A DNA stretch of 51,745 nt from Candidatus Omnitrophota bacterium (GTDB taxonomy: Bacteria > Omnitrophota > Gorgyraeia > Gygaellales > Profunditerraquicolaceae): the NCBI GenBank assembly GCA_028717245.1, contig JAQUOD010000006.1, positions 1 through 51,745 on the forward strand. Reading direction: 5' to 3'. The notes beneath the pieces were generated by a model, which worked only from the letters and a program-made list of their open reading frames with translations, had not been told where the DNA came from and did not search any database. The position numbers and the translations under genes are program-made. This document shows positions 4,993 through 41,582 of the stretch, in pieces. Position 1 is the first letter of the stretch; the number at the start of each line of letters is the position of its first letter.

Positions 4993-5022
4993 GTGTCATT
5001 CCGCCGCTTTTCTCGCTTACAA

Positions 5023-5094
5023 GGTAGCGGGTCCTGTCTTGGGTATTTTTTCGCCGCACACCGCGGCTCAAAAACACCCAAGCCACCCGCTAAA
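5023..5094 (+). repeat. Mini-hairpin of the structured repeat family, copy A
   Basis: Nested stems TAGCGGGT/ACCCGCTA, CTTGGGT/ACCCAAG and GCCGC/GCGGC, with an asymmetric CCTGT bulge. The closing sequences match those of the full-length element. Confidence 0.6.
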
Positions 5095-5148
5095 CTCTCG
5101 TGTCAGCTCGAAAACCGCCAGATTCATTTGTGAATTGACAGGTTATTT

Positions 5149-5314
5149 TAACGGATGGCTTGGCTTGGTTTCGAACAGCATGTAGTTTATGCGAGCGGCC
5201 AGGGTTCACCCGCTATAAGGATATTGGTGAGAGCGAGCAGAAACTTCAAGCGAGATTTTCCTCGGCGGGGAAAATCGAGCGGTGCTGTGAGAAACTAAGA
5301 CAAGGCAGCCGCTA
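5149..5314 (-). ncRNA. Candidate structured RNA / structured repeat, full-length copy A (homologous to 26142-26313 on +)
   Basis: The reverse complement aligns with the 26.1-kb copy over long identical blocks (TTTCTCACAGCACCGCTCGA, GGTGAACCCTGGCCGCTCGCATAAACTACATGCTGTTCGAAA). An internal 8-bp hairpin carries a double compensatory change. No ORF. Confidence 0.45.
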
Positions 5315-5363
5315 AAGCGTTATCCTAAGTCTATGAACTCTGCGTTTCCCGCTTAATTTTCCC

Positions 5364-5407: not shown

Positions 5408-5481
5408 GGGCCCATAGCTCAGCTGGTCAGAGCAGTTGACTCATAATCAATTGGTCCGGGGTTCGAATCCCTGTGGGCCCA
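5408..5481 (+). tRNA. tRNA with CAT anticodon (elongator Met, or Ile2 if lysidinylated)
   Basis: 74-nt cloverleaf folded by hand: acceptor GGGCCCA/TGGGCCC, D arm GCTC..GAGC, anticodon loop CTCATAA, T arm CGGGG-TTCGAAT-CCCTG. CCA is not encoded. It lacks initiator features (position 1-72 is paired, and there is no run of three G-C pairs in the anticodon stem). Confidence 0.9.
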
Positions 5482-5489
5482 GTTAGTCG

Positions 5490-5563
5490 GGGCGATTGGC
5501 TCAGTTGGTTAGAGCGTTGCGTTCACATCGCAAAGGCCACAGGTTCGAATCCTGTATCGCCCA
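5490..5563 (+). tRNA. tRNA-Val (CAC)
   Basis: 74-nt cloverleaf: acceptor GGGCGAT/ATCGCCC, D arm GCTC..GAGC, anticodon stem TTGCG/CGCAA with loop TTCACAT, T arm ACAGG-TTCGAAT-CCTGT. CCA is not encoded. Confidence 0.92.
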
Positions 5564-6399: not shown

Positions 6400-6836
6400 T
6401 GCAGAAACTTGAATTATATATTGACGGTGCCTCCAAAGGTAATCCCGGCCCAAGCGGTGTCGGCGTAGTTATCTGTCAAGACGGCCAGACTATTAAAAAC
6501 ATATCTAACTTTATCGGCAATGCCACTAATAATATTGCTGAATATACCGCCTTAATCCACGGCCTGGAGGCAGGGCTTATGCTACGCGCAGAGAGTATTA
6601 GGATAAATACCGATAGCCAGCTTCTTTACCGGCAGGTAAAAAAAATTTATAAAATAAAGAATCCTAATATCCTGGGCCTATACAACCAGGCAATACGGCT
6701 TATTTCGGCTTTTAAAGAGTTTTCCATCAATCATATCCCGCGGGAAAATAATAAAGGCGCGGATAAATTAGCGAATCAGGCGGTAAAACAAGCGTTCTTT
6801 AAAAAACAGGGCAGGCAGAAGGTGGCCGCCCCGTAA
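6396..6836 (+). CDS. rnhA: Ribonuclease HI
   Basis: LYIDGASKGNPGPSGVGVVI, NNIAEYTALIHGLE, INTDSQL and HIPRENNKGADKLAN supply the DEDD catalytic motifs. ATGA overlap with the upstream gene. The last 28 nt overlap the 5' end of rnpB. Confidence 0.85.
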   Translation: MMQKLELYIDGASKGNPGPSGVGVVICQDGQTIKNISNFIGNATNNIAEYTALIHGLEAGLMLRAESIRINTDSQLLYRQVKKIYKIKNPNILGLYNQAIRLISAFKEFSINHIPRENNKGADKLANQAVKQAFFKKQGRQKVAAP

Positions 6837-7237
6837 TTAAGCGGGGAGGAAAGTCCGGGCTCCAGAGGACAACGTAATGGGTAATACCCATCCTGCGTAT
6901 GTAATGTACGCGGAGGATTTCCGCCATAAATTTTGGCGGACCCGCCAATCTTTTTGGCGGGAGAGCCACAGAGACGAGTAGAGGCTAAAGGATGTAACCC
7001 GAAGATCCTTCGGATGCTTTCAGCATCCTCAGGATCACTTCTCGGCCTACGGCCTCGAAGTGAAACGAGGTAATCTCTACGCGGAGCAAGGTAAAATAGG
7101 GGATAAGCGCTGGTCCGGCGCGTTATAAGTCCCGGGTAAGCTGCTTGAGCTTTGGCGGTAACGCCAGGGTCGAGAGGAATGGCCACTAGATGCGCGTATT
7201 CGTATCGAAAACAAAACTCGGCTTATTCTGCCTGCCC
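6809..7237 (+). ncRNA. rnpB: RNase P RNA, bacterial type A
   Basis: P1 GGGCAGGCAGAA (6809-6820) pairs with TTCTGCCTGCCC (7226-7237). P3 hairpin CCCCG-TAATTAAG-CGGGG. CR-I GAGGAAAGTCCGGGCTCC. GGAGCAAGGTAAAATAGGGG, GGGTAAGCTGCTTGAG and CR-V ACAAAACTCGGCTTAT are also present. Confidence 0.92.
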
Positions 7238-7247
7238 ATCTAAAAAA

Positions 7248-10874: not shown

Positions 10875-11957
10875 ATGAGTTCTTTAGTAAGAAAACACAT
10901 AGTCAACATCGTCCCCTATGAAGCCGGTAAGCCTATAGAGGAGATTAAGAGGCAACTGGGGCTTAAGCAGGTGATAAAGCTTGCTTCTAATGAGAACCCA
11001 CTGGGTCCATCCCCTAAGGCATTAGAGGCAATCAGGAAGAATTTGGCTACGCTTAACCGTTATCCTGACTCCAGTGGTTTTTACCTGAAGAATAAACTCT
11101 CTAAATTCCTCAATGTTAAACCGCAAAATTTGGTCTTAGGCAATGGCTCCGATGAGCTTATCGAGATTATCGTTAAGACCTTCGTGGAGGAGGATGAGCA
11201 TATCATCACCGCGGATTTTACCTTCCTGGAGTATAAAATTATTTCTCACGTGAAGGGCCGCATTGTCGTGACCGTGCCTTTAAAATATTTTAAATATGAC
11301 TTAGAGGCCATCAGGAAAAGAATCGACGCAAAAACCAAGGTAGTCTTTATTTCCAATCCGAATAACCCTACGGGCACATACGTTACTAAATATGAAATAG
11401 AAGATTTCCTTAGAGACCTCCCGGAGAATGTAATTTTGGTTTTGGATGAGGCGTACGATGCCTTTATAGATGTCGATGACTTCCCGGGAAGCTTAAGTTA
11501 TATAGGCAAAAATAATGTGATTCTCCTGAGGACCTTCTCTAAGACTTACGGCCTTGCGGGATTAAGGATAGGTTATGCTGTCGCCGGGCAGGAATTGATT
11601 TCTTATATGGAGACCGCCAGGCAGCCGTTTAATACAAATTCCCTGGCCCAGGCAGCGGCAATAGCGGCCCTGGAAGATAAAAAATTCCTGAGCAGAACCC
11701 GCAAAGCCGTTTTAGAAGGAAAAAACTACATCTACGATAACCTGAATAAACTGGGCGTAGCCTATGTGCCTTCTGTAGCTAATTTTATTCTTCTGGACGT
11801 CGGCAGAGACGGCAGCGCTGTTTTTAAAGAGATGCTCAGATACGGCGTCATTATCAGAGAGTTAAAACAATACGGCCTGAAAAACTTTATCCGGGTAACC
11901 ATCGGAACAAAAAAAGAAAACGAGAGGTTCATTAAAGTCTTAAAGAAAGTGTTGTAG
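10875..11957 (+). CDS. hisC: Histidinol-phosphate / aromatic aminotransferase (class II PLP)
   Basis: LASNENPLGPSP, NPNNPTG and the PLP-lysine motif FSKTYGLAGLRIGY. Its position in an aromatic amino-acid block suggests it may act on prephenate/phenylpyruvate-type substrates (inference). Confidence 0.85.
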   Translation: MSSLVRKHIVNIVPYEAGKPIEEIKRQLGLKQVIKLASNENPLGPSPKALEAIRKNLATLNRYPDSSGFYLKNKLSKFLNVKPQNLVLGNGSDELIEIIVKTFVEEDEHIITADFTFLEYKIISHVKGRIVVTVPLKYFKYDLEAIRKRIDAKTKVVFISNPNNPTGTYVTKYEIEDFLRDLPENVILVLDEAYDAFIDVDDFPGSLSYIGKNNVILLRTFSKTYGLAGLRIGYAVAGQELISYMETARQPFNTNSLAQAAAIAALEDKKFLSRTRKAVLEGKNYIYDNLNKLGVAYVPSVANFILLDVGRDGSAVFKEMLRYGVIIRELKQYGLKNFIRVTIGTKKENERFIKVLKKVL

Positions 11958-12000
11958 TTTGTTTGAATGTTTTAATGTTGAAATGTTAGAATGTTTAAAT
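11958..12000 (+). repeat. NNAATGTT octamer array (intercistronic, hisC-aroF)
   Basis: TTTGTTTGAATGTTTTAATGTTGAAATGTTAGAATGTTTAAAT, starting at the first base after the stop codon. Confidence 0.8.
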
Positions 12001-12022
12001 ATAAAATAAAGATGAGGGGAAG

Positions 12023-13039
12023 ATGATTATTGTACTAAGGCCGGATGCTACAGACGAACAGATAAATCATATTATTGAAAAAGTCCAGAAATTAGGGTTA
12101 AAGCCCCATGTCTCTAAGGGTACCGAGCGTACCATCATCGGGGTCATCGGGCCGGAAGATGTATTACGCGTCACTCCTTTGGAAGTATTCCAGGGCGTAG
12201 AAAAAGTCATAGCGGTGTTAGCGCCCTACAAGTTAGTTTCGCGGGAATTCAAGGCAGAGGATTCAGTTATTGATTTAAGCAAAGGCATAAAATTGGGCGG
12301 TAAAAAAATTGTGGTTATGGCTGGCCCCTGCACGATAGAAAATCTGGACACCTTATACGAAGTAGCCAAAGAAGTAAAAAAAGCAGGGGCAACGGTTTTG
12401 CGCGGCGGGGCATTTAAACCGCGGACTTCGCCTTACAGTTTTCAGGGGTTAGGCGAGGAAGGTTTGAAGATATTAAACAAGGTAGGCAATGAATTAGGGT
12501 TAGCTACCATAACCGAAGTAATGGATCCGCGCGACGTAGAATTAGTCGCTAAATATGCGGATGTTTTACAGATCGGCTGCCGCAATATGCAGAATTTCAA
12601 CCTGCTTAAGGAGGTAGGGCAGACGAGAAAACCGGTTTTATTAAAACGCGGCATGTCCTCTACCATTAAGGAATTGCTTATGTCTGCGGAATATATTTTG
12701 TCAGGGGGCAATTTCAACGTCATATTATGCGAACGCGGCATCAGGACATTCGAAGATTTTACGCGTAATACCCTGGATATAAGCGCAGTGCCTGCCGCGG
12801 AGCAACTTTCGCACCTGCCTATAGTTGTAGACCCCAGCCACGCTGCGGGTAAATGGGGGATGGTGCCTGCGCTTTCTAAGGCAGCAGTCGCCTCCGGCGC
12901 AGATGGCCTGATTATTGAGGTGCACAGCCATCCCGAAGATGCTGCTTCAGACGGCGCGCAATCATTGATACCGGATAATTTCGCACAACTCATGGATGAA
13001 CTGAGGGTAATTGCAAAAGCAATAGGGAGAGAGGTTTAG
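12023..13039 (+). CDS. aroF: 3-deoxy-7-phosphoheptulonate (DAHP) synthase, type I-beta, with N-terminal regulatory domain
   Basis: 338 aa. N-terminal roughly 70-aa ferredoxin-like domain, then [36 protein letters not shown] and DPSHA. Confidence 0.88.
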
Positions 13040-13080
13040 TTTTGTTTGAATGTTTAAATGTTTTAATGTTTTAATGTTAA
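13040..13080 (+). repeat. NNAATGTT octamer array (aroF-tyrA)
   Basis: TTTTGTTTGAATGTTTAAATGTTTTAATGTTTTAATGTTAA, immediately after the stop codon. Confidence 0.8.
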
Positions 13081-13101
13081 AGGTTAGGTGGTGGATAGAA
13101 G

Positions 13102-14014: not shown

Positions 14015-14665
14015 ATGATTATCGCTATTGACGGCCCGGCTGGCGCAGGCAAAAGCACTGTCGCCAGATTAATAGCCCAGAAACTGGGCTTTCTTTATAT
14101 CGATACCGGAGCGATGTACCGGGCATTGACCTTAAAAGCCCTGAAGGAAAAAATAAAAATAGAAAATACCGCTGGCCTTATCGAAATGGCGCATAATGCC
14201 GGCATTGATTTGATCAATAACCCGGATGGGTCTTTAAAAATATTTTTAGATAGAGAGGATGTGACCGCAGAGATCAGGCAGCCGCGTATCACCAGACTGG
14301 TTTCCGATATCGCTAAAATTAAGGAAGTAAGGCAGGTGATGCTGGGCCTGCAAAGAAAACTGGGTGAGGCGGAAAATAGCGTTTTAGACGGCCGCGATAT
14401 AGGGACCGTAGTTTTCCCGGATGCGGATAAGAAATTCTATCTAGATGCGCAATTCTCAGAGAGGGTGAAGCGGCGGCATAAAGAATTGAGAGAATCCGGG
14501 CAGGAGATTACTCCTGAAGAAGTAGACGCTGACCTGCGTAACCGCGATACCATTGATTCTACCCGGGAATTCGCGCCCCTGAAAAAAGCAGATGATGCAA
14601 TTTATATAGATACTACCAATTTGACTATAGAGGAAGTAGTAAATAAAATCTCTAGCTATATATAG
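14015..14665 (+). CDS. cmk: Cytidylate kinase
   Basis: IAIDGPAGAGKST P-loop, YIDTGAMYRA and DGRDIGTVVFPDA. Confidence 0.92.
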   Translation: MIIAIDGPAGAGKSTVARLIAQKLGFLYIDTGAMYRALTLKALKEKIKIENTAGLIEMAHNAGIDLINNPDGSLKIFLDREDVTAEIRQPRITRLVSDIAKIKEVRQVMLGLQRKLGEAENSVLDGRDIGTVVFPDADKKFYLDAQFSERVKRRHKELRESGQEITPEEVDADLRNRDTIDSTREFAPLKKADDAIYIDTTNLTIEEVVNKISSYI

Positions 14666-14804
14666 CACCAGGTGCAAATCCAATCGGGCACCTGGTGCGG
14701 AATTGAGATTGTACCTGTCCCGTTTTAATCGGATATAATTAAGGGACAGGTACAAGATCGGATTTAGAAACGGTAGGAGATTAGCTTTGCACCAGGTGCG
14801 AAAT
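14665..14804. repeat. GCACCWGGTGC / GTACCTGTCCC palindromic element (complete, both arms)
   Basis: Contains an 11-bp perfect hairpin GTACCTGTCCC-21 nt-GGGACAGGTAC (14711-14753), flanked by GCACCAGGTGC palindromes. Related copies lie at 35410-35540 and 41514-41576. Confidence 0.75.
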
Positions 14805-14816
14805 ACGAAATATTAG

Positions 14817-16613
14817 ATGGATAAATCCTTAATTCGTAATTTTTCAATCATCGCCCATATCGACCACGGCAAATCCACCCTGGCCGACAGGATACTGGAG
14901 ATAACCGGCGCAGTGGATAAGAAGCACAGCCGCGACCAGTTACTTGATGATATGGATTTAGAGAGGGAAAGGGGTATAACTATTAAGGCCTCCATGGTGA
15001 GGTTGTCCTATCGCGCCAAAGACGGTAAAGACTACGCCTTAAATCTAATTGATACCCCGGGCCACGTTGATTTTACCTATGAAGTCTCTAAGTCCCTCGC
15101 TGCCTGCGAGGGAGCACTCTTGGTGGTAGATGCCGGCCAGGGCATAGAGGCCCAGACCGTGGCTAATTATCATTTAGCCAAAGATAATAAATTAAAAATT
15201 ATACCGGTGATAAATAAAATTGATTTATCTCAGGTAGATATCCCGCGCACCAAAAATCAGATTACCGGCATCCTGGGTTTTCAGGAAGAAGAAATAATCC
15301 TGGCTTCTGCCAAGGAAGGCACCGGTGTTAGAGAAATACTGGAGAGGATTGTGGAAGCCGTTCCTGCGCCTTCCGGAGAAGACACGCATCCTTTAAGGGC
15401 GCTCGTCTTTGACTGCCGTTTTGATATATTCAAGGGCGTAGTGGTCTTTGTCAGGATTATGGACGGTAAAATCGATCCGCATACGCAGTTAAAAATGATG
15501 CATTCAGGCAAGACCTATAAAATAGAGGAGTTGGGGGTATTTAAAAATTTAAAATATTTTGCCGTAGAAGGCTTGTCCTGCGGCGAAGTAGGTTATCTGA
15601 CCGCGAATATCCGCGACCCCCGTGAGATTATTATCGGAGATACTTTGACTGACGCAAAGAACCCTTGCCAGGAGGCCTTACCCGGATACCGTACCTTAAA
15701 ACCATTGGTATTCTGCGGTATATATCCTGTCAACCCGGGAGATTTTCCGAATTTACGCGACGCGATGGATAAACTGAAACTCTCTGACGCCTCATTTGTG
15801 TTTGAGCCGGAAAACAGCCAGTCTTTTGGTTCGGGTTTTCGCTGCGGTTTCCTGGGGCTTTTGCATATGGAGATAGTGCAGGAGCGTTTAGAAAGGGAAT
15901 ATGATTTAAACCTGATATTGACCGTGCCCAATGTCGTCTATAGGGTAAGAAAAAGAGACGGTGAGATTCTGGACGTAGATACGCCGGCAAAATTTCCTGC
16001 CCCGCAGGATATACAGGAATCTCAGGAGCCTTATGTCAGCCTGTTGATGATTATCCCCGTAGACACCATTGACCCGGTATGCGAAATGACTAAGGCCAGG
16101 AGGGGGACTTTTAAATCCAGCGAATATCTGGGCGTAGATAGAGTGAAATTGGTTTTTGAGATCCCGCTTTCTGAGATTATCGTAGATTTTTATGACCGGA
16201 TGAAATCCCTTACTAAAGGGTATGGTTCGCTGGATTATGAATTTAAAGGTTATCTCCCGGCCAATATGGTAAAATTGGACATCATGTTTAACGGCGTAAC
16301 CTGCGATGCCTTCTCTTGCCTGATACATAAAGATAAGGCAGCGCATAAGGCGCATGCGTTGGTATCCAGGCTCAAGGAGTTGATACCGCGGCAATTATTC
16401 GAGGTGGCGATACAGGCAAAGATAGGCGCACAGGTTATTGCCTCCGAAAGAGTGCGGAGCGTGGGCAAGCATGTGACGAGTAAATGCTACGGCGGCGATA
16501 TTACGCGTAAGCGTAAACTCTGGGAGGGGCAGAAGGAAGGCAAGAAACGGCTGAAACAGTTTGGGAAAGTAGAAATTCCGCAGGAAGCCTTCTTAGAAGT
16601 CTTGAGAATATAG
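14817..16613 (+). CDS. lepA: Translation elongation factor 4 (LepA)
   Basis: IRNFSIIAHIDHGKSTLADR, DTPGHVDF, NKID and the LepA C-terminal domain (KCYGGDITRKRKLWEGQKEGKKRLKQFG). Confidence 0.95.
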   Translation: MDKSLIRNFSIIAHIDHGKSTLADRILEITGAVDKKHSRDQLLDDMDLERERGITIKASMVRLSYRAKDGKDYALNLIDTPGHVDFTYEVSKSLAACEGALLVVDAGQGIEAQTVANYHLAKDNKLKIIPVINKIDLSQVDIPRTKNQITGILGFQEEEIILASAKEGTGVREILERIVEAVPAPSGEDTHPLRALVFDCRFDIFKGVVVFVRIMDGKIDPHTQLKMMHSGKTYKIEELGVFKNLKYFAVEGLSCGEVGYLTANIRDPREIIIGDTLTDAKNPCQEALPGYRTLKPLVFCGIYPVNPGDFPNLRDAMDKLKLSDASFVFEPENSQSFGSGFRCGFLGLLHMEIVQERLEREYDLNLILTVPNVVYRVRKRDGEILDVDTPAKFPAPQDIQESQEPYVSLLMIIPVDTIDPVCEMTKARRGTFKSSEYLGVDRVKLVFEIPLSEIIVDFYDRMKSLTKGYGSLDYEFKGYLPANMVKLDIMFNGVTCDAFSCLIHKDKAAHKAHALVSRLKELIPRQLFEVAIQAKIGAQVIASERVRSVGKHVTSKCYGGDITRKRKLWEGQKEGKKRLKQFGKVEIPQEAFLEVLRI

Positions 16614-16680
16614 TTTGAATGTTTGAATGTTAAAATATTTGAAAGTTTAAATGTTTAAAAATTTAAAAGTTAAACATAAT
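16614..16680 (+). repeat. NNAATGTT-type array (lepA-lepB), running into the first lepB codons
   Basis: TTTGAATGTTTGAATGTTAAAATATTTGAAAGTTTAAATGTTTAAAAATTTAAAAGTTAAAC. Confidence 0.7.
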
Positions 16681-19581: not shown

Positions 19582-19600
19582 TTCCCGATAAGATTTAACC

Positions 19601-19629
19601 TTGACATAACTTAAATAATAGGGTATACT
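19601..19629 (+). promoter_or_regulatory. Consensus sigma70 promoter for element L2
   Basis: TTGACA (19601-19606), 17-nt spacer, TATACT (19624-19629). The 12-mer CCTTGACATAAC is shared with the tpsA promoter at 45762. Confidence 0.55.
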
Positions 19630-19635
19630 TATTTG

Positions 19636-22760: not shown

Positions 22761-25700
22761 TCATTGAAGGTATATATCGATTTGTTTTATTTGTCCGGCC
22801 CTTACTTGTTGGGCATAGGGTGAGGGAATAGTACCTTGGGGAATTTCAACGGAATTGCCATCTTTATCGTTAAAGATAATCCTTTGTATTTGCGCCGCAT
22901 CTTTACCGAAGGTATTTTTTCTTTTAGGGTTATGATAGATAACCCTGACCTTACTTAAGAAATTAAAAGCATAACTCTTATTTTTTGCGTTAAAGAGCCA
23001 ACACGCCAATATTGGCTTAAACTGTAGATTGAGTTCGCCCTTGTCATTCAGGATAAAGGGTTCTAGACCCGTGTTCATCACCAGCCAGAGCTGTAAAAAT
23101 TCTGCCGTAGAACCGGAGAGCCGTGCGACAAAACCGTTCCCATGCAGGTTTTTATCCGGGAAGGCGCTGCTGACCAAAAACGAGGAATTCTCCAGGATGC
23201 TGCGGCCATACCTTTCGGGCCTCTGGAAGGGGATAAGCACGTTCTTAAAATCCGCATAAAATTCTTCATAGAGCCCGCTCTTTAAAATCTCCAGCATATA
23301 TTTATATTCCATATGCAGCCATATTGACTCATGCTCCAGCCACCCCGGAGTAAATACGCGGCACCTGCCGATCTCCTCGGGCATGCTTTTTAAAGAAACT
23401 GTGGACTTATACATCTTCAGTTTTTTATCGTAAAGGCTGCTCTTCTTGATGGCCCTATACAATACCCGCGCTTTGTTTACGTTATCGGTTAATTTTAAGG
23501 CATGCACCTGCGCTTCCAGGAAGAAGGGCAGTTTTATCTGCGCAAATCTTGTCGGCTTCGCAAAGGATGCGCCCTGCGGTATCCATTCCTTAGGCTCGTT
23601 TATGAAATAAGCGTAATAAATATTCTTTTTCTTATCATATGCCTTTTCGATTCCCGAGCCTATTTTTTTTAATGCATTATTTAAGATAGTAATCAGCTGT
23701 TCAACGGCAGCTTCTACTTCGCCTCCGCTGAAACCCATGCGCGTTTTCTGGCGGTAATCTTCTTTCAAGGCATAACTCTTATCCCAGTATTTGTAATTTT
23801 TTTCGTCAGAATCAACGCTGGTATTTTCCTGAATTAATTTCCCCAGGTTAATCAAAAAGGCGTATATTTCTTCGGTGACGTAGATTTTTTCTATGGCGCA
23901 TTTTTCTATCGCCTCTTTTATCAGGATGACCAGCCTTTTTAATTCCAGGGTCTCATTTAATGAAGAGCCGAATAATCCGGGCAGGCCATTGAGCGCGTCA
24001 AACCAGTTAGGTTTATTCGCTTCCATCTCGATGCCGCAGCCAAAAGGGTCAAGAGATGCCAGTTTATTAACCAATAGGCAAAAAAGTTTATTGATGAGAG
24101 TCGTTTGATAGATTGAACCTTGGCCGTATTGTGTCCTCACCAGATGTTGCTGCAATGGGCGTTTTTTAATCATCTCTCTTTTGGCATTACAGGGTGAAAC
24201 CGAATGCAATTGCCTTATTTTGCCGTCTTTAAGCAGGTACTTTTCCTGTCGCGGCTTAACCGTTTCGGTGTTATCGTAAAAGGTAAAGGCCTTTTTCTCA
24301 AAGATTATTTCTTTTAATTTTTCCGGATAAACAGCCAGATAATTTTCCAAGAGGTCCAGGTTATAAGTCCAGTGGTCTGTCCAGAAACCTTCGCCGTGCT
24401 CAGCCTCCTGGTTCTTCAGGGAATGCGAAAGCAGCACGTTCAGGAATTCATCGTACGATGGCTTTTCCGCCGCATCAGCCACAGGCTGGTCTGCCTTCGC
24501 CAGAGGCGGATCTGCCTTCGGCAGAAGTTTAATTTTGTTTTCTTTAATAAAAAGGATAACATCTCCCGGAGTGAAAGGTTTGCTTAAAAAGGAAATAAGG
24601 CCAGGGATATCTTCGGTTGCCATAAAAGCGTTTAATACTGTTTTGAGTTTTTCCCTGTCCTTAAGCGTAAAGCTTATCCCTTTGACTACCAGCGGATTGA
24701 AGCCGTCGGCCTGGATAAGGTTAAAGAAGTTAATTACATTCTCATCTTTAATCTCGGGGTTAAACCAGGTATCGCACCTGCGGTTTTGGTTTATATCGCG
24801 GTAATTGCCGTTACCTTGGGAAAAATATGCCGCCTGGATGTGGAATTTATTGTAATCCCTTTCTAAGTCGCCGTGTTTACGGCCATAGAGATAGAATACG
24901 GATTCCGAGGCGCCGGACTCAAAGATGACGGGATAGCCGCCGCGCATGATATTATCCAGATAGGTCTGCCGGGCATAAAGGTTGAATTCATCACAGCTGC
25001 TTAGGGTAGTAATCTCAGATTCTAAATCCTCGATAATCTTTCTGTTTTCTTCTTTTTTAGCCAAGAGGTACTCCGGTTTGATGATCCGCGGGACCGAGGA
25101 ATTCAATATCTCTCTGCTACGCATATAACCGATGAGGGAGTAAAACTTTTTTTCGCTGTTTTTTCCGAGCTTGAAATTCAAGAGGCTCATGGCGCAGGGG
25201 GTTTTATTTTTAGTGAGGTTATTGCGCGGGAGAGTGAAATTCTTACGGGTGAGAAATTCGCGGGGACAGGAGAAGTCGGTGACCGGCCCGAATACGGATT
25301 GCGGATCAACTATGGGTTTGATGATTTTTGGCCTGTTTCCTTCATAATGAAACGCCAGATAAAAATTGCCTTCTTCTATATGGATTACTTCCGGCCTGTC
25401 AGCAGGGTCAATGTCAAGTTTATAGAAGGGCACGCCCTTATCCAGGTTTTCTATATTCATCCAGGCTTCAATAGTGCGGCTTAGTTTCTTCAAAAATAGA
25501 TTACTTACGCCGTAAGGAATGATTTGCGGCAGGCCGTCTATAAGCTGGATATCCTTAAGTTTTGATTTTGTGTTTTTGACAGTGACTGTTCTGCTTAGGG
25601 CGGCATAAGAATCTTGAGGGATGGTGAAATATTCTACTGTGACCTTAAGGCCCAGAGATAAGTTTTCTTCCTCCAGGGTTAAGCCAGAAGAGGTGATGCG

Positions 25701-26063
25701 CATGCGGTTAGTGAGGGAGAAACCTGAATTAGTAAAACCGTTATGGAAGGGTTCGTAGAGTGTAAATTTTTTACCCGTGTATATTTTTATGAAGGTACGG
25801 AATCCCTGCAGAGGCACTAACTGCCAGGCCTTATTCGCCGGGAAGAATTCTAATATCGCATGGTCCTTGTCCTTAGTGCCGAAACTGGCTATCCCTTGCC
25901 CGCGGTTGACATAGAAGACCCACATGGGTATGCCGTATTTACCGGCAATGCCGGGGAAGAAGTTGGCAAAGGGTTTGGCAAAGTTATAATTCTCAATAAC
26001 GAATTCCTTGCCTTTGGGGTTGAGGTAATACTTCGGTTGTTTGTTCCGGAAACAGCTAGCCAT
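22761..26063 (-). CDS. Large uncharacterised protein with GH94-like (alpha/alpha)6 glycoside phosphorylase/hydrolase motifs
   Basis: 1100 aa. YRDINQNRRCD (compare RDxxQD), NKPNWFDALNGLPG (compare DWNDALN, which holds the catalytic Asp) and RLSGSTAEFLQLW (compare SGSASW). AAAGGAG RBS. Confidence 0.45.
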   Translation of the reverse strand: MASCFRNKQPKYYLNPKGKEFVIENYNFAKPFANFFPGIAGKYGIPMWVFYVNRGQGIASFGTKDKDHAILEFFPANKAWQLVPLQGFRTFIKIYTGKKFTLYEPFHNGFTNSGFSLTNRMRITSSGLTLEEENLSLGLKVTVEYFTIPQDSYAALSRTVTVKNTKSKLKDIQLIDGLPQIIPYGVSNLFLKKLSRTIEAWMNIENLDKGVPFYKLDIDPADRPEVIHIEEGNFYLAFHYEGNRPKIIKPIVDPQSVFGPVTDFSCPREFLTRKNFTLPRNNLTKNKTPCAMSLLNFKLGKNSEKKFYSLIGYMRSREILNSSVPRIIKPEYLLAKKEENRKIIEDLESEITTLSSCDEFNLYARQTYLDNIMRGGYPVIFESGASESVFYLYGRKHGDLERDYNKFHIQAAYFSQGNGNYRDINQNRRCDTWFNPEIKDENVINFFNLIQADGFNPLVVKGISFTLKDREKLKTVLNAFMATEDIPGLISFLSKPFTPGDVILFIKENKIKLLPKADPPLAKADQPVADAAEKPSYDEFLNVLLSHSLKNQEAEHGEGFWTDHWTYNLDLLENYLAVYPEKLKEIIFEKKAFTFYDNTETVKPRQEKYLLKDGKIRQLHSVSPCNAKREMIKKRPLQQHLVRTQYGQGSIYQTTLINKLFCLLVNKLASLDPFGCGIEMEANKPNWFDALNGLPGLFGSSLNETLELKRLVILIKEAIEKCAIEKIYVTEEIYAFLINLGKLIQENTSVDSDEKNYKYWDKSYALKEDYRQKTRMGFSGGEVEAAVEQLITILNNALKKIGSGIEKAYDKKKNIYYAYFINEPKEWIPQGASFAKPTRFAQIKLPFFLEAQVHALKLTDNVNKARVLYRAIKKSSLYDKKLKMYKSTVSLKSMPEEIGRCRVFTPGWLEHESIWLHMEYKYMLEILKSGLYEEFYADFKNVLIPFQRPERYGRSILENSSFLVSSAFPDKNLHGNGFVARLSGSTAEFLQLWLVMNTGLEPFILNDKGELNLQFKPILACWLFNAKNKSYAFNFLSKVRVIYHNPKRKNTFGKDAAQIQRIIFNDKDGNSVEIPQGTIPSPYAQQVRAGQIKQIDIYLQ

Positions 26064-26090: not shown

Positions 26091-26118
26091 ATTCTACATA
26101 TTTTCCTGCATTTGTCCA
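26091..26118 (-). promoter_or_regulatory. Candidate promoter of the 1100-aa gene
   Basis: On the minus strand: TGGACA, 16-nt spacer, TAGAAT. Confidence 0.35.
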
Positions 26119-26141
26119 CAGAATTTTATTTTCTTTTCCAA

Positions 26142-26313
26142 GGTAGTGGGTCCTGTCAAGGCTATTTTCTCACAGCACCGCTCGAAATTCCCCACCGAGG
26201 AATTTCTCGCTTGAAGTTTTTGCTCGCTCTCACTGACTTCGTATTAGCCGGTGAACCCTGGCCGCTCGCATAAACTACATGCTGTTCGAAAACAGCCTTG
26301 CCACCACTAGACC
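26142..26313 (+). ncRNA. Candidate structured RNA / structured repeat, full-length copy B
   Basis: Closing stems TAGTGG/CCACTA, AAGGCT/AGCCTT, TTTTC/GAAAA and ACAGCA/TGCTGT. Internal hairpin GAAATTCC-CCACCGA-GGAATTTC (26184-26206). Homologous to 5149-5314 on the minus strand. Confidence 0.45.
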
Positions 26314-26366
26314 ATAGTATCGACAATATCGAATCGAAAAGGGAGAGTAATTTTATTTATGATGTT

Positions 26367-26434
26367 CAGCGGGTGACGCGGGGGATGCCTCGAGGAAAAT
26401 TTGACGAGAGGCGCCCCCGCGGCAGGACCCGCTG
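26367..26434 (-). repeat. Mini-hairpin of the structured repeat family, copy B
   Basis: CAGCGGGT..GCGGGGG..GCCTC / GAGGC..CCCCCGC..ACCCGCTG. The architecture and closing sequence match the 5023-5094 hairpin in the opposite orientation. Confidence 0.6.
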
Positions 26435-26476
26435 CCTCATGGGAATTTACACAAGATGAGTACGGGGGGATTGTGT

Positions 26477-26505
26477 TTGACTTTTGGGATAAAGAGTGTT
26501 ATGAT
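26477..26505 (+). promoter_or_regulatory. Sigma70-type promoter for gatCAB
   Basis: TTGACT (26477-26482), 17-nt spacer, TATGAT (26500-26505). Confidence 0.5.
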
Positions 26506-26856: not shown

Positions 26857-28317
26857 ATGGAAATTAATACGTTATCTGCGCATGAATTAATCGAGAAGCA
26901 AAATAAGAAAGAAATTACGCCCCAGGAGATACTTGATTCTTTAAGAAAAAGGACGAAAGAAGTAGATTCTAAAGTTAAAGCCTATGTGAGACTTTCGGAT
27001 TCTAATTCCTTAAACTTACAGCTTACAGCTTACAGCTTACAGCTTCCTTTAAAAGGTATTCCCGTTTCGATAAAAGACAACATCTGCACCGAAGGTTATC
27101 ATACCGAATGCTGCTCTAAAATTCTGGAAGGTTTTAAGCCGCCTTATGACGCTACGGTAATCCGTAAATTAAAAGAAGCAGGCGCTTCAATTTTTAGCCT
27201 TAAGACCAATATGGATGAGTTTGCCTTCGGCTCATCTACGGAGAACTCCTGTTTTGGGCCCACGCATAATCCCTGGAATTTAGAGTGTGTCCCCGGCGGC
27301 TCTTCCGGAGGTTCTGCTGCCAGCGTAGCTGCAGATGAAGCTATTTTTGCCTTAGGCTCGGATACCGGCGGTTCCATCCGCCAGCCTGCGGCATTTTGCG
27401 GCGTAGTCGGGCTTAAGCCTACGTACGGAAGGGTCTCCCGTTATGGTTTAATTGCCTTTGCCTCGAGTTTAGACCAGATCGGGCCCCTCGCTAAAGATGT
27501 GCGGGACTGCGCCCTGGCGATGAATATTATTTCGGGCTATGATCCGAACGATTCTACTTCCGTAAATATTGAAACGCCGGATTATGCCAGGGCATTGGTT
27601 AATGATATTAAAGGCATTAAGGTAGGCATACCTAAAGAGTATTTTATCGAGGGTATGGATAAAGAAGTCAGGGTAATAGTAGAAGAAGCCATAGATAAAT
27701 TGAAAGATTTAGGCGCCAGTTATAAACCGGTTTCTCTGCCGAACGCTGATTACGCCGTGCCGGTTTATTATATTATTGCTACCGCAGAAGCCAGCTCTAA
27801 CTTGGCCAGGTTTGACGGCGTGCAGTATGGTTTTAGGACCAACGACCAACGACCAACGACCAACGACCAATTGATCAATATGTATAAGAAGACACGCGGC
27901 GAAGGTTTTGGCGAAGAGGCGAAGAGAAGGGTTATTTTAGGGACCTTTGTTTTATCCCACGGTTATTACGACGCTTATTATCTCGGGGCATTGAAGGTGC
28001 GGACCCTGATAAAGCAGGATTTTGATGCGGTGTTTCAGGATTTTGATTGTATTGTTACGCCTACTTCTCCTACGCCGGCATTTAAAATCGGGGAAAAGAT
28101 AGAGGACCCTTTAAAAATGTATCTTTCGGATATCTATACTATTTCCGCAAACCTGGCAGGTATCCCCGCGATATCTGTCCCTTGTGGATTTACTAAAAAG
28201 GGATTACCGGTGGGCTTGCAGATTCTAGCTAAGCCTTTTAACGAAGAAATGCTCTTTAGGGTAGCTTATGCCTATGAGCAGAATACGCCCTGGCATAGAA
28301 TGAAACCTAAAATTTAA
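26857..28317 (+). CDS. gatA: Asp/Glu-tRNA amidotransferase subunit A
   Basis: Amidase signature [13 protein letters not shown] and [31 protein letters not shown]. Contains two in-frame heptamer arrays. Confidence 0.95.
27015..27045 (+). repeat. CTTACAG heptamer x4 inside gatA
   Basis: Four perfect copies (27015-27042) plus a partial one; encodes [10 protein letters not shown]. The reverse-complement word CTGTAAG is arrayed in the intergenic spacer at 34939-34962. Confidence 0.9.
27839..27870 (+). repeat. CCAACGA heptamer x4 inside gatA
   Basis: Four perfect copies (27839-27866) plus a partial one; encodes [12 protein letters not shown] related intergenic array lies at 33912-33946. Confidence 0.9.
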
Positions 28318-28398
28318 TTTTGTTTAAATGTTCGAAAGTTAAAAAGTTTAAATGTTATAGATAACATTCTAACATTAAAACATTCTAACATTAAAACA
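28318..28398. repeat. AATGTT / AACATT word palindrome (gatA-gatB)
   Basis: TTTTGTTTAAATGTTCGAAAGTTAAAAAGTTTAAATGTTAT-AG-ATAACATTCTAACATTAAAACATTCTAACATTAAAAC. Confidence 0.8.
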
Positions 28399-28405
28399 AC
28401 AAGAC

Positions 28406-29836
28406 ATGTATGAAACAATAATTGGTTTAGAAGTTCATGTGCATTTAAAAACGCAGACTAAGGCATTCTGCGGTTGTTCTACCGAATTCGGCCAGGAGCC
28501 GAATTCCCAGACTTGTCCGGTGTGCTTAGGGTTTCCGGGGTCTCTTCCTGTCTTAAATAAAGTAGCTTTTGATTACGCTATCAAAGTCGCCCTGGCCTTG
28601 AACTGCCGGGTGCAGGAATATACAAAGTTTGACCGGAAGAATTATTTTTATCCGGATTTGCCTAAGAATTATCAGATTTCTCAATACGATTTGCCTATTG
28701 CCAAAGACGGGTTCCTGGATATAGATTTGGAAGGCAAAACTAAACATATCAAGATCCGCCGAGCGCATTTAGAAGAGGATGCGGGGAAGCTTATCCACCA
28801 GCAAGAGGAGAGCCTCGTAGATTTTAACCGTTCCGGCATGCCCCTTTTAGAAATAGTCACTGAGCCGGATATAAATTCTCCTGATGAGGCCTATGCATAC
28901 CTGACCAAACTAAAAAGTATCATTGAGTATCTGGGGGTTTCTGATTGCGATATGGAGAAAGGGTCCTTACGCTGTGATGCCAATGTCTCTATAAGAAAAA
29001 AAGGCGCCAAGGAGCTGGGCGTAAAAACAGAAGTAAAGAATATGAATTCCTTTAAAGGCGTAAAAGAAGCCCTGGGTTTTGAGATAGAGCGCCAGATAGG
29101 ATTATTAAATAAAGGCAGGGCCATTATCCAGGAGACGCGGCTCTGGGATGCTAAGGAATTAAAGACATCTTCTATGCGCGCAAAAGAAGAGGCGCAGGAT
29201 TACCGTTATTTTCCTGAGCCGGACCTCACCACCTTTGTGATTACGCAGGAGAAAATCGAAGAACTAAGAGAGTCAATACCCGAGTTACCGCAGGAAAAAC
29301 TGCTGCGTTTTATAAAAGATTACGGGTTATCGGAATATGACGCCGGGATTTTAGTCGCCTCCCGGCAGGGCGCGGATTATGCCGAAGAGTGCTTTAAAAA
29401 GTATCCAGGTAAAGATAAGAAACCCATAGCCAACTGGCTGATTGGGCCTTTACTTAGAGAGGCGAACACCCGCAATTGCGCCCTGGTAGATTTAAAGGTG
29501 AGCCCGGAATATTTAACGGAATTGGTTAATTTTTTAGAGAACGGTCAGATTTCAAACCTCACGGCAAAATCGGTTTTGACAGAAATGGTTGAAACGAAGA
29601 AATCGCCGGCAGCCATAATCCAGGAAAAGAACCTGGTGCAGATTTCCGACTCCGCCGGCTTGAATGACGCGGTAGAAGAGGCGATTAAGGAAAATGCCAA
29701 ATCCGTGAATGATTATAAACAGGGTAAAAGTAATGCCCTGATGTTTTTGGTCGGCCAGGTCATGCGTAAGACCAAGAGCAGGGCAAACCCGCAGGTGGTC
29801 CAGGAGATATTAAAGGGGAGGCTTGATCATGCGTAA
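28406..29836 (+). CDS. gatB: Asp/Glu-tRNA amidotransferase subunit B
   Basis: YETIIGLEVHVHL, KNYFYPDLPKNYQISQ, RAHLEEDAGK and the C-terminal YqeY/GatB domain. Confidence 0.95.
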   Translation: MYETIIGLEVHVHLKTQTKAFCGCSTEFGQEPNSQTCPVCLGFPGSLPVLNKVAFDYAIKVALALNCRVQEYTKFDRKNYFYPDLPKNYQISQYDLPIAKDGFLDIDLEGKTKHIKIRRAHLEEDAGKLIHQQEESLVDFNRSGMPLLEIVTEPDINSPDEAYAYLTKLKSIIEYLGVSDCDMEKGSLRCDANVSIRKKGAKELGVKTEVKNMNSFKGVKEALGFEIERQIGLLNKGRAIIQETRLWDAKELKTSSMRAKEEAQDYRYFPEPDLTTFVITQEKIEELRESIPELPQEKLLRFIKDYGLSEYDAGILVASRQGADYAEECFKKYPGKDKKPIANWLIGPLLREANTRNCALVDLKVSPEYLTELVNFLENGQISNLTAKSVLTEMVETKKSPAAIIQEKNLVQISDSAGLNDAVEEAIKENAKSVNDYKQGKSNALMFLVGQVMRKTKSRANPQVVQEILKGRLDHA

Positions 29837-31085
29837 AAAACTTATTTTCGTTTTCGCCATAGTATTAGTAGTTTCTGTTTCTACTTCATTGGCGATTTCA
29901 GCCATAGATAAAAATAAAAAGAATGAACTCTTCCGCGAGGTACAACTTTTCTCAGACACCTTAGCCATTATAGAGACGGATTATGTAGATGAGACAAAAC
30001 CCAAAGATTTGATTTACGGTGCGCTCAAAGGCATGCTTTCATCTTTAGACCCGCACAGCCAGTTTATGGATCCCGATACCTACAATGAACTCAAAGTTGA
30101 TACAGAAGGAAAATTCGGCGGACTGGGGATTGAGATTACCATTAAGGACAGCCTTTTGACTGTGGTTACACCCATAGAAGATACCCCGGCCTGGAAGGCA
30201 GGCATCAAAGCCAATGACCGGATCGTAAAAATAAATAATGAATTAACGCGGGATATGAGCCTTACTGATGCCGTAAAAAAAATGCGGGGTAGGCCGGGTG
30301 AGGCAGTAAATATCACGGTCTTAAGGGAATCCGAAAACAAGCTTTTAGAATTCAAGATTGTGCGTGATATCATCAAGGTTAAGGACGTCAAAGAAGCGCG
30401 GATATTAGAAGACGGTATCGGTTATATCCGCCTGATTGAATTCAGGGAGAACACGCCCCAGGATATCAACGCAGCATTACAGAATTTATCCAGGGCAGGA
30501 ATGAGCGCCATCATCCTGGATTTACGCAATAACCCCGGAGGATTATTGGATGTGGCAGTAAGGGTAGCGGAAAGATTTATAGAAAAAGGGAAGATGGTGG
30601 TTTATACCAAGGGCAGGCTTAGCTCCCAGAATTTAGAATTTATTTCTTCTGCGGGGCAGCCTCTGGTTAACCTGCCCATGGTGGTTTTAATCAATGAGGG
30701 CTCGGCTTCCGGCAGCGAGATAGTCGCCGGGTGCCTGCAGGATTATAAACGCGCCATCGTCGTAGGCGTAAAGTCATTCGGCAAGGGTTCGGTGCAGACG
30801 GTTATCCCTTTAAGCGACGGTTCGGCCATCCGTTTGACCACGAGCAAATATTTTACGCCTTTGGGTAAGGAGATCCACGGAAAAGGCGTGATCCCGGATG
30901 TAGTCGTGGAAGAAGGCAAGATAGAGATTACGCAGAAGGCACAGGACATATTTGAAAAATTAGATAAGGACGAAAAGGCAAATGTAAACAAGGAAAATAA
31001 ACCCTTAGATTATAAATCCGATAACCAGTTGATGCGGGCAGTGGATATTTTAAAGGCAATCAAGATATATAAAGGGGTTAAATAA
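29829..31085 (+). CDS. ctp: Carboxy-terminal processing protease (S41)
   Basis: Signal anchor, PDZ domain (GGLGIEI..), LDLRNNPGG, GSASGSEIVAG and SFGKGSVQ. ATG 29829 preferred over TTG 29823. Confidence 0.9.
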   Translation: MRKKLIFVFAIVLVVSVSTSLAISAIDKNKKNELFREVQLFSDTLAIIETDYVDETKPKDLIYGALKGMLSSLDPHSQFMDPDTYNELKVDTEGKFGGLGIEITIKDSLLTVVTPIEDTPAWKAGIKANDRIVKINNELTRDMSLTDAVKKMRGRPGEAVNITVLRESENKLLEFKIVRDIIKVKDVKEARILEDGIGYIRLIEFRENTPQDINAALQNLSRAGMSAIILDLRNNPGGLLDVAVRVAERFIEKGKMVVYTKGRLSSQNLEFISSAGQPLVNLPMVVLINEGSASGSEIVAGCLQDYKRAIVVGVKSFGKGSVQTVIPLSDGSAIRLTTSKYFTPLGKEIHGKGVIPDVVVEEGKIEITQKAQDIFEKLDKDEKANVNKENKPLDYKSDNQLMRAVDILKAIKIYKGVK

Positions 31086-31121
31086 TGTTTGAATGTTTTA
31101 ATGTTGTAATGTTTCAATGTT
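31086..31121 (+). repeat. NNAATGTT octamer array (ctp-yibQ-like)
   Basis: TGTTTGAATGTTTTAATGTTGTAATGTTTCAATGTT. It fills the whole spacer from the stop codon to the ATG. Confidence 0.8.
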
Positions 31122-31907
31122 ATGAAAAAATGGCAAGGGTATAAAATAGCAGTTTTAATTTTAGCGGCCGTAGTAATAATAGAAACCGCGTTGGTTATTT
31201 ATCTATGGCTCGGCCGGCCCAGAAAAATAGCCAAGAAGCCCCTTAGGGTTGAGGGAAAGATAGCCATCGTCATCGACGACTGGGGGTATAATTTAAATAA
31301 CCTCTATATTTTAGACCAGATAAAGTATCCCCTGACTATGTCTATACTGCCGGATTTAGCTTATTCCCGGACCATTGCCGCAATGCTGAATAAGCGCGGC
31401 ATAGAAGTAATCCTGCATCTGCCGATGGAGCCGCGCGAAAAAATAAGGCTGGAAAAAGATACTATCCTGACCACTATGGATGGGCCGGCTATAAGGGGAA
31501 TCATCAACCGGGATTTAGACGATATATATTATGCTAAGGGCGTTTCTAACCACATGGGTTCTAAGGCTACCGAGGATTCAAGGACAATGACTATCGTCTT
31601 TGAAGAATTAAAGAAAAGAAACCTTTTTTTTCTGGATAGTTTTGTATCCCCTAAGACCGTCTGCTTTCCTTTGGCCCGTAAGATGCGCATTGGTTTTGCC
31701 AGGAGAGATGTGTTTTTAGATAATAAGGAAGAACCCGGATACATAAAACAGCAGATTTATAAATTAAAGGCAAGGGCAAAGGCTTACGGTGAGGCCATAG
31801 GTATCGGGCATGACCGGCAGGTTACACTGGAGGTTTTAAAGGAAGTAATGCCGGAATTAGAAAAACAAGGGTATAAGTTCGTTTTCCTTTCGGAGTTAAT
31901 AAAATAA
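31122..31907 (+). CDS. Divergent polysaccharide deacetylase family protein (YibQ/DUF610-like)
   Basis: N-terminal TM helix, IAIVIDDWGYN, LTMSILP, HLPMEP and NHMGSK. Confidence 0.75.
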   Translation: MKKWQGYKIAVLILAAVVIIETALVIYLWLGRPRKIAKKPLRVEGKIAIVIDDWGYNLNNLYILDQIKYPLTMSILPDLAYSRTIAAMLNKRGIEVILHLPMEPREKIRLEKDTILTTMDGPAIRGIINRDLDDIYYAKGVSNHMGSKATEDSRTMTIVFEELKKRNLFFLDSFVSPKTVCFPLARKMRIGFARRDVFLDNKEEPGYIKQQIYKLKARAKAYGEAIGIGHDRQVTLEVLKEVMPELEKQGYKFVFLSELIK

Positions 31908-35398: not shown

Positions 35399-35409
35399 AG
35401 AATTACTTA

Positions 35410-41509: not shown

Positions 41510-41513
41510 AAAA

Positions 41514-41576: not shown

Positions 41577-41582
41577 AAGATT

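Follow-up and report, generated by a model that had tools for sequence, protein, structure and literature searches.

A strand-polar family of structured intergenic repeats in Candidatus Omnitrophota, with inverted doublets around variable DNA

Introduction

The ERIC (enterobacterial repetitive intergenic consensus) or IRU (intergenic repeat unit) sequences of enterobacteria and the Correia elements (NEMIS, Neisseria miniature insertion sequences) of Neisseria are intergenic imperfect palindromes of 100-170 nt which occur in both orientations and are often transcribed; copies of them are kept at orthologous sites, and internally deleted variants exist. A different type of structured DNA is represented by the attC sites. 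These are strand-specific recombination sites in which the fold, and not the sequence, is conserved; they border small gene cassettes that have no promoter, and they lie in direct orientation in arrays adjoining intI and attI. REPINs are inverted doublets of repetitive extragenic palindromic (REP) sequences, which have one preferred configuration and persist vertically (PMC3337134). The present work concerns an element of ~170 nt that is found as two inverted copies, A and B, in a stretch of 51,745 nucleotides from a Candidatus Omnitrophota bacterium (assembly GCA_028717245.1, contig JAQUOD010000006.1, positions 1 to 51,745), which will be called the window.

Omnitrophota are uncultured, ultra-small and largely host-dependent bacteria, and to our knowledge hardly anything has been learned of how their genomes change or of their non-coding RNAs; literature searches on repeats or RNA motifs of Omnitrophota brought up nothing pertinent. 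The element described here belongs to a family that is real, previously uncatalogued and strongly structured. The best explanation of the observations, to which an approximately even chance is assigned, is that the family is a strand-polar intergenic repeat resembling REPINs or BIMEs (bacterial interspersed mosaic elements), that the single-stranded fold is what is selected, and that the two loci in the window are “empty” doublets. The strand on which the fold is better supported, which is the plus strand at locus A and the minus strand at locus B, will be called the S strand.

The likeness to REP sequences, REPINs and BIMEs consists in the formation of inverted doublets with a strongly preferred configuration, the additional occurrence of singlets, the presence of mosaic clusters with other short motifs, and long vertical persistence at orthologous sites. 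Like REP sequences, the copies are extragenic and multi-copy, with up to 7 copies per metagenome-assembled genome (MAG) and orthologues in 3-5 lineages. In contrast to the short REP palindrome of ~20-40 nt, the unit here has ~170 nt, 53 pairs, one branch point and a conserved core of ~100 nt. The doublets, moreover, can span as much as 2.3 kb of unrelated genes, the host belongs to Omnitrophota rather than Proteobacteria, and no gene like the REP-associated tyrosine transposase (RAYT) was seen near more than 100 copies in a search with an IS200 query. Membership in the REP/REPIN class is not claimed, since a RAYT was not found and the branched unit has several times the size of a REP sequence. 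The foot motif of the element is T(T/G)TAGCGGG, in place of the GTAG-type REP head. Compared with ERIC/IRU and Correia elements, the family shows no sequence relation; its fold is branched, strand-polar and extensively covarying, its head-to-head pairs surround variable intervals, and neither a TA duplication nor an IHF-type site was identified in it.

Results

The two loci in the window

The intervals 5144-5318 (+) and 26140-26314 (-) are two copies of one ~170-nt element (Table 1). Within them, the arms 5166-5297 and 26163-26294, which extend over 132 nt and are 88% complementary, form an inverted pair that far exceeds every other in the window in length. Across a wider region the two copies align with 83% identity, and the reverse complement of locus A shares with locus B three identical or near-identical blocks of 20, 29 and 42 nt. 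Hairpin P3 illustrates how the copies differ: its arms are GATTTTCC (5254-5261) and GGAAAATC (5269-5276) in copy A and GAAATTCC/GGAATTTC in copy B, a difference of two compensatory pairs. When compared with dinucleotide-shuffled sequences, both copies fold more stably on either strand, with z between -3.5 and -4.6.

Each full copy is accompanied, at a distance of ~45-50 nt, by a shortened or “mini” copy which is inverted relative to it, with the S 5' ends of the two facing each other, and the whole modules extend over 5021-5318 (A) and 26140-26438 (B). Mini A contains an exact copy of the P1 motif of the family, GGTAGCGGGTCCTG, and keeps P1, the tandem G-A and a compensated P2, while 104 nt of core are swapped for a loop of 5 nt. 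Mini B has one mismatch to GGYAGCGGGTCCTG and keeps P1 with its GGA bulge and the tandem G-A, while P2 and the core are gone. A comparison of flanks across loci shows that CGCCAGATTCATT belongs to a linker motif, GCTCGAAA..CGCCAGATTCATT, which in ~10% of family members closely precedes the S 5' end. Promoter-like matches in spacers A and B have no homology to each other.

Module A lies after dnaG-rpoD and before the promoter of tRNA-Met and tRNA-Val, and module B separates the gatCAB operon from a divergently oriented gene for a protein of 1100 aa. A search of the window with Rfam 15 at gathering thresholds returned only RNase P RNA (6811-7239) and tRNA-Met and tRNA-Val (5408-5563).

Table 1. 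Positions of the element copies, their parts and the spacers in the window; strands of element features are given in the S sense.
Feature	Position	Strand	Support or remark
Full element, copy A	5144-5318	+ (S sense)	R1 178.9 bits, E 2.6e-41, full length
Copy A, closing stem P1	5147-5172 with 5291-5316	+	family covariation
Copy A, tandem G-A	5173-5174 opposite 5289-5290	+	
Copy A, helix P2	5175-5179 with 5284-5288	+	family covariation
Copy A, helix P4	5184-5192 with 5237-5245	+	family covariation
Copy A, conserved internal loop	5193-5205 opposite 5231-5236	+	
Copy A, helix P5	5206-5210 with 5226-5230	+	family covariation
Copy A, hairpin P3	5250-5261 with 5269-5280	+	internal G-A/G-A loop; terminal loop 5262-5268
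Full element, copy B	26140-26314	- (S sense)	R1 172.8 bits, E 7.5e-40, full length
Mini copy A	5021-5097	-	R1 52.7 bits, E 5.5e-11, local end in place of core
Mini copy B	26362-26438	+	R1 with filters off, 25.4 bits (+) versus 3.5 bits (-)
Spacer of doublet A	5098-5143	.	holds CGCCAGATTCATT
Spacer of doublet B	26315-26361	.	no alignment to spacer A

Family size, fold and covariation

An exact 19-mer from the core was scanned against contigs of a collection with one genome per species, and gave 21 loci, 17 of which are true members, in 8 MAGs (7 labelled Omnitrophota and 1 labelled Planctomycetales); a single MAG contained as many as 7 anchor-bearing copies. A scan of metagenomes with a 20-mer gave 95 loci and from these 93 non-identical full copies. 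Copies fished with exact words from the core form a biased collection; the covariance model built from the family, R1 (176 positions, 53 pairs), also picks up more diverged copies, at 91-133 bits, which lack the anchor words. In the public genomes and metagenomes scanned, essentially all copies are confined to Candidatus Omnitrophota. Viral contigs, phage records and plasmids contained no copies, and a phage, plasmid or viral origin was rejected on the lack of matches in those collections. The consensus in the S sense is TTTTAGCGGGTGGCTTGGCTTGATTYGAGCAGCATGTAGTTTATGCGAGCGGCCARGGTTCACC-loop-GGTGAGAGCGAGCAKAAACTCCAAGCGAGATTTTCCTCGGTGGGGAAAATCGAGCGGTGCTGCGAGAAACAAGCCAAGACAGGACCCGCTAAAA. With Rfam 15 at E up to 10, both window loci gave only noise (the best hit being 24.6 bits to a Drosophila lncRNA model), and four further loci had no match at gathering thresholds.

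The fold consists of a long closing stem, P1, which contains a GGA bulge and a G-A mismatch, followed by a tandem G-A step, the helix P2 and a three-way junction. One arm of the junction is formed by P4 and P5, which are separated by a conserved 13/6-nt internal loop, and the other is P3, which has an internal G-A/G-A loop and a conserved terminal loop of 7 nt. The closing stem is imperfect and stands on the feet TTTTAGCGGG...CCCGCTAAAA; these termini are conserved inverted sequences of 9-10 nt, and the interior is the P2-P5 core, or nothing in the mini form. A T-run at the start and an A-run at the end of the element are present on both strands. The run GAGCGAGC beside P5 may resemble the Rep-binding repeat in the T-shaped inverted terminal repeats of parvoviruses.

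The fold is supported by strong covariation. RNAalifold predicts 30 pairs from 86 copies, 19 of them with compensatory changes; P5, for example, has UA replaced by GC in 25 sequences and AU by CG in 30. In the alignment of 113 matches, which is fitted to R1 (an independent MAFFT alignment yields the same helices), 91.9% of the cells pair, whereas shuffling leaves 78.4% paired and sliding the partners no more than 48.7%; changes on both sides are present in 45 of the 53 pairs, in 549 cells where 124 are expected, and none of 500 shuffles reaches any of the observed measures. The predicted pairs rank highest among the column pairs in mutual information, and a mutual-information scan shows no tertiary pairs or pseudoknot beyond the helices. 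Junctions, loops and unpaired nucleotides of the core are nearly invariant, and the terminal stems vary by covariation.

An initial annotation, made by a model from the letters of the window alone, had described much of this correctly. Alignment recovers the long inverted repeat between the loci together with the identical blocks that the annotation quoted; its coordinates for P3 and its double compensatory change between A and B are exact; and the order of full element, spacer and inverted mini-hairpin is indeed the same at both loci, as the R1 matches demonstrate. Its remark that pairing is preserved where the copies differ extends to strong covariation across the family, its inability to name a known RNA family is borne out by the Rfam scans, and the element proves to be multi-copy in the genomes and metagenomes scanned. 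It reported no open reading frame (ORF), and the element contains only a 9-codon ORF of variable length in the core, the overlapping ORF calls being spurious. The modules are present at both loci, as it stated, but with the corrected limits given above. The mini-hairpin, which it treated as a distinct module, is instead a core-deleted member of the family, and the closing helices of A and B, which it considered completely different, are diverged homologues. The lone G-U pair that led it to prefer the minus strand at locus A does exist, but that strand reading is outvoted by the family evidence.

Strand polarity

The two strands of the element are not equivalent. Folding in the S sense is better by 3-24 kcal/mol in 86 of 86 copies, and the variable pairs outside the misaligned outer stem comprise 73 G-U pairs against 28 A-C pairs in that sense. 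At the base of P5 a conserved U-G pair in S corresponds to C-A on the opposite strand, and mismatches which are G-A in S are pyrimidine-pyrimidine on the opposite strand. The tandem G-A motifs and the GAAA loops exist in the S sense only, and an alternative form of P5, GCCC-GA-GC-GAAA-GC-GA-GGGC, contains a GAAA (GNRA) tetraloop. Copies sense to the flanking genes and copies antisense to them show the signature with equal strength, and this independence of the direction of the neighbours implies that it is explained neither by a mutational strand bias nor by selection on the local mRNA. G-T wobble pairs, tandem G-A pairs and GAA loops are stable in single-stranded DNA too, and the signature is no proof of RNA.

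Doublets, mini copies and the variable slot

Where copies are paired, the S 5' ends face each other at 17 loci, a number which includes both window loci and some loci that are duplicates or orthologues of each other; the copies are direct at 1 locus (L049) and convergent at 0. Mini copies of ~76 nt recur at other loci, and on the comparison of their sequences they are deletion derivatives of the family from which the core is absent. The spacing of the pair is 27-50 nt at window loci A and B, L023 and L039, and 0.45-2.3 kb elsewhere. A search of 13 loci with filters off found no partner at 12. The candidate for a hidden partner of the solo copy between cysS and tmk, a 17-bit match upstream of cysS in L006, was rejected as a different hairpin, GGTTACG...CGTAACC.

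The longer intervals hold diverse ORFs for small membrane or secreted proteins, on either strand. Three of the enclosed genes (L079, 546-986; L092, 4374-4784; L086, 1495-1914) encode related small multi-pass membrane proteins which end in ...TRP(R/K)VKEQFK, and the products of several other enclosed genes begin with M(M)EKK(K/R). The most direct view of the interval is provided by L064 and L095, between which the mini copy is 90%, the full copy 96% and the flanking genes 76-80% identical, while the interval between the copies is without similarity. The interval of a doublet thus behaves as a slot, the content of which (nothing, or unrelated small genes) differs among related genomes. An inverted pair is unchanged by reverse complementation, so the bracketed DNA could enter a resident pair either way round, and recombination in either orientation would match the mixed direction of the enclosed genes.

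Genomic placement, gain and loss

All copies are intergenic. Of 64 copies with called ORFs on both sides, 34 have the S strand co-directional with both neighbours, 24 are antisense to both, and 6 lie between divergent genes. No copy among the 64 lies between convergent genes, but this is given no weight because convergent gene pairs are rare in these genomes; in the window, 1 of ~45 non-overlapping long ORFs is on the minus strand. The neighbours are housekeeping genes, among them cysS, tmk, argH, lysA, uvrC, a uvrD-like helicase gene, metF, asd, groEL, ribF and pilin genes. Many of the S-sense copies fill an operon junction, in which a stop codon is followed by ~4 nt, the S element, 10-17 nt (~15) and a start codon. 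When the 90 nt preceding S were scanned for sigma-70 promoters, the copies with antisense context showed no enrichment and no fixed position of promoter-like signals.

The orthologous sites of related genomes record the gain or loss of units. The region between gatC and the 1100-aa gene has 468 nt in the window and 141 nt, without the element, in L002 and L003, while L001 has a different palindromic insert there; gene order is the same in L001-L003, and their 1100-aa proteins are 74-78% identical. The empty regions in these relatives identify module B as an insertion. In L090 two genes abut where L072 has a 1.19-kb unit inserted at the same site, consisting of a gene between a minus-strand and a plus-strand S copy ([S-]-gene-[S+]); a 75-nt intergenic region in L042 is occupied in L064 and L095 by a minus-strand mini, a gene and a plus-strand S copy ([mini-]-gene-[S+]); and L100 is empty at an orthologous site that is occupied in L052 and L062. 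Units are therefore gained or lost as DNA, being present or absent at orthologous sites. Other copies are retained: the arrangement cysS-[S]-tmk is found in five lineages and argH-[S]-lysA in three, with the element 75-91% identical and the adjacent gene DNA 64-83% identical. By this measure the retained copies are vertically inherited and evolve more slowly than the neighbouring coding DNA, although their apparent conservation is inflated by the sampling with exact core words.

Two promoter-like sites flank module B. The site TGGACA-16-TAGAAT (26118-26091) has boxes that are conserved in L001 and L002, and the other divergent gene has the site TTGACT-17-TATGAT (26477-26505). Module B lies between the two and is therefore probably outside either mRNA. 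The box TGTGGACAAATGC...AAAATATGTA(G/A/C)AAT upstream of the 1100-aa gene (26091-26118, -) is conserved across the 74-78%-identical genomes and is probably the promoter of that gene or an operator. The 1100-aa protein itself (22761-26063, -) has thousands of homologues, some of them annotated “cellobiose phosphorylase”, and no Pfam-A match at E up to 0.001.

Discussion

The interpretation of the family as a REPIN- or BIME-like repeat whose single-stranded fold is under selection is based on the gain and loss of units at orthologous sites, the occurrence of copies in both orientations, the existence of derivatives without a core, the polarity of the doublets, the mosaic clustering with other repeats, and the position of a copy outside any obvious transcript. 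The initial annotation had proposed either a new structured non-coding RNA (ncRNA) or a structured mobile repeat. Presence and absence at orthologous sites, the two orientations, the polar doublets, the cassette-like intervals and the copy between two divergent promoters favour the second of these, while a conventional single-copy ncRNA gene or cis-regulatory leader is disfavoured. A riboswitch or cis-regulatory leader is in fact rejected on the mixed orientation of the copies (34 sense, 24 antisense, 6 divergent) and on their unrelated downstream genes, and a known RNA family on the Rfam searches at gathering and permissive thresholds. In mechanistic terms, a trans-acting protein that copies or maintains the element would recognise the fold of the S strand, either in single-stranded DNA or in RNA; the inverted pairs could act as portable homology or recombination sites, the bracketed DNA being swappable in either orientation; and copies in operons may have been tolerated, or co-opted as intercistronic RNA structures.

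Several observations weigh against this interpretation. A core of ~100 nt with nearly invariant unpaired nucleotides exceeds what the known hairpin-recognising transposases need and is more like a functional RNA, even though the collection of copies through exact core words causes the conservation of the core to be overestimated. At tight junctions, 10-17 nt before a start codon, ~14 copies are in the S sense and ~3 are antisense, which hints at selection at the RNA level in operons. No direct target-site duplication is visible in the flanks, where the empty sites are too diverged and repeat-cluttered for its definition (the closest relative of the 1100-aa protein is 78% identical, which leaves no near-identical empty site) and a 2-nt TA duplication would be indistinguishable from the inverted termini. 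Neither the window nor ~0.75 Mb of sequence surrounding more than 100 copies yielded an IS200/RAYT-like ORF in a BLAST search with an IS200 TnpA query. The Pfam families of the 150 nearest ORFs, considered for the 25 most frequent families with at least two neighbours, are housekeeping families only, with no recurrent mobile-element family among them.

The first two of these observations belong to the strongest alternative, in which S is a structured RNA that acts in cis in mRNAs, as a processing site, a stability element or a translation-context element, and its dispersal as a repeat is secondary; such an RNA might take the form of a self-cleaving ribozyme or a protein-binding platform. The strong covariation and the nearly invariant junctions and loops are what such an RNA would show, as are S-sense motifs typical of RNA (tandem sheared G-A, the GAAA tetraloop of the alternative P5, the conserved U-G), the conservation of orthologous operon copies across species beyond that of the coding DNA, and the modal distance of 10-17 nt from the S 3' end to the start codon, ~4 nt after the stop codon, with S sense prevailing at ~14:3. 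In its size, its closing stem, its multi-helix core, its conserved junction nucleotides and its covarying stems the element is indeed like the ncRNAs of Rfam (6S, SRP, tmRNA, T-box, HEARO/omega, small self-cleaving ribozymes, OLE/GOLLD/ROOL/raiA), but it differs from them in being multi-copy, in occurring in both orientations and as core-less derivatives, and in having no Rfam 15 match. What makes a cis-acting RNA doubtful, though worth serious consideration, is that 24 of 64 copies are antisense to both neighbours and retain the S signature equally well, with no promoter-like signal upstream of S in the sigma-70 scan of antisense copies; that the downstream genes (tmk, lysA, uvrC, the uvrD-like helicase gene, metF, pilins) are functionally unrelated; that copy B of the window is upstream of both divergent promoters; that minis, from which the entire core is missing, propagate too; and that the RNA-typical pairs and loops are known to be stable in single-stranded DNA as well. 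It is almost inconceivable, by comparison, that the copies are chance hairpins or ordinary intrinsic terminators which happen to resemble each other. Both loci are intergenic and a terminator-like pattern was flagged inside mini A, but two sequences within 52 kb share 88% identity over 132 nt and have more than 100 homologues with covariation, and S stands between co-transcribed genes only 15 nt ahead of start codons. An intrinsic terminator also requires a T-run after its stem, whereas here the T-run comes first and the A-run last on both strands; with no U-tract after the stem, an intrinsic terminator is excluded.

If the polarity of the doublets is emphasised rather than the fold, the copies may be regarded as the long terminal inverted repeats of a cargo DNA transposon mobilised in trans, with the structure [antisense copy]-cargo-[S copy]. 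The modules of the window would then be internal-deletion derivatives like miniature inverted-repeat transposable elements (MITEs), and solo copies would be one-ended remnants. The fixed polarity of the pairs, in which the outer end is always the S 3' end (17:1:0), fits such a transposon, and so do the insertion of whole units relative to empty orthologous sites, the intervals, which measure from 27 nt up to 2.3 kb and hold unrelated cargo facing either way, and the termini with their inverted sequences TTTTAGCGGG / CCCGCTAAAA. Against it stands the fact that neither a target-site duplication nor a transposase was seen: none of the 17 paired units contains a transposase-like gene, their cargo being small membrane or secreted proteins, and no autonomous relative that would combine the same ends with a transposase, as is expected for a MITE, is found among them. 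Most copies, moreover, are solos within conserved operons (12 of 13 have no partner with filters off). L064 and L095, which have one site, near-identical ends and unrelated cargo, fit an exchange within a resident doublet better than two transpositions, and the stems of the element vary by covariation around a conserved interior, the opposite of what transposase-bound inverted repeats show. A cargo transposon is accordingly considered improbable. The plain MITE that the initial annotation had described as the outcome to be expected from dozens of copies, target-site duplications and no covariation does not agree with the data, in which many copies show strong covariation and no visible duplication.

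A bolder reading, which is unlikely but a little less so than the transposon, is that the head-to-head S pairs mark gene-cassette slots among the housekeeping genes, where genes for small membrane or secreted proteins would be put in, exchanged or removed in either orientation by a protein that recognises the single-stranded fold, or alternatively that S is a new ribozyme or the RNA of a ribonucleoprotein which processes the transcripts of the slots; on either view the family would count as a new class of structured nucleic acid. The attC sites provide the obvious comparison, from which the pairs described here differ in being inverted and scattered among housekeeping genes. The 150 nearest ORFs show no integrase among their 25 most frequent families. 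If this reading were true, the class would have more than 100 members and would be specific to a poorly known phylum.

Returning to the REPIN- or BIME-like interpretation, the fold of the S strand is far more elaborate than any known transposase-recognised hairpin, and whichever explanation holds there is probably a protein partner or a catalytic activity behind it. The family is large, clean and strongly covarying, and could be deposited as an RNA or repeat family, after which regions such as those in the window need no longer be annotated as empty. Polar doublets around interchangeable small genes point to a way in which streamlined genomes may diversify surface or secreted proteins with no need of classical mobile-element genes.

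Accompanying repeats and other features of the window

A second conserved hairpin of ~230 nt (“element 2”), GGTAACAGTTTTGCTGCGG...CTCGTAAATCCTTGCAGAC...TGCCAAAAAATTTCTAATGCACGCTC...CCGCAAAACTGTTACC, abuts the S 5' end in fixed orientation in ~18 of 113 copies. Its feet, GGTAACAGTTTTGCTGCGG...CCGCAAAACTGTTACC, are similar to those of the family. It is found at L045 (~6881-7130), L053, L078, L100, L104, L106 and other loci, does not occur in the window, and gave no match in Rfam. Small palindromes of the type AGGGACGGTTCT... and doublets of GGGACAGTCCC are found in the window at 36885-36957 and stand beside the element in L032, L033, L036, L056, L072, L095 and L111. The resulting mosaic of repeat families in intergenic regions resembles the organisation of BIMEs.

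The window contains further repeats. A family of palindromic hairpins of the GCACCAGGTGC type is represented at 14660-14805, 35404-35540 and 41507-41582, and at the first of these positions two units of ~64 nt are inverted with respect to each other, which is a REPIN-like doublet. Intergenic tandem arrays of the 8-nt unit AATGTTTN, in both orientations, are located at 11939-12004, 13022-13087, 16599-16672, 28308-28410 and 31065-31130, and 7-mer arrays of ACCAACG at 27824-27875 and of AGCTTAC at 27015-27045 and 34936-34962. The last 6 kb of the window, 45642-51745, have no listed long ORF, probably because an ORF runs past the window end. They contain direct repeats of ~480 nt (48809-49760), 279 nt (50521-50898) and 252 nt (51367-51745, 100% identical), and are probably part of a giant gene for a repetitive protein. 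A promoter-like block, TTTCCTTGACA-N17-TATACT/TATGCT, occurs three times, at 135-169, 19596-19630 and 45759-45793.

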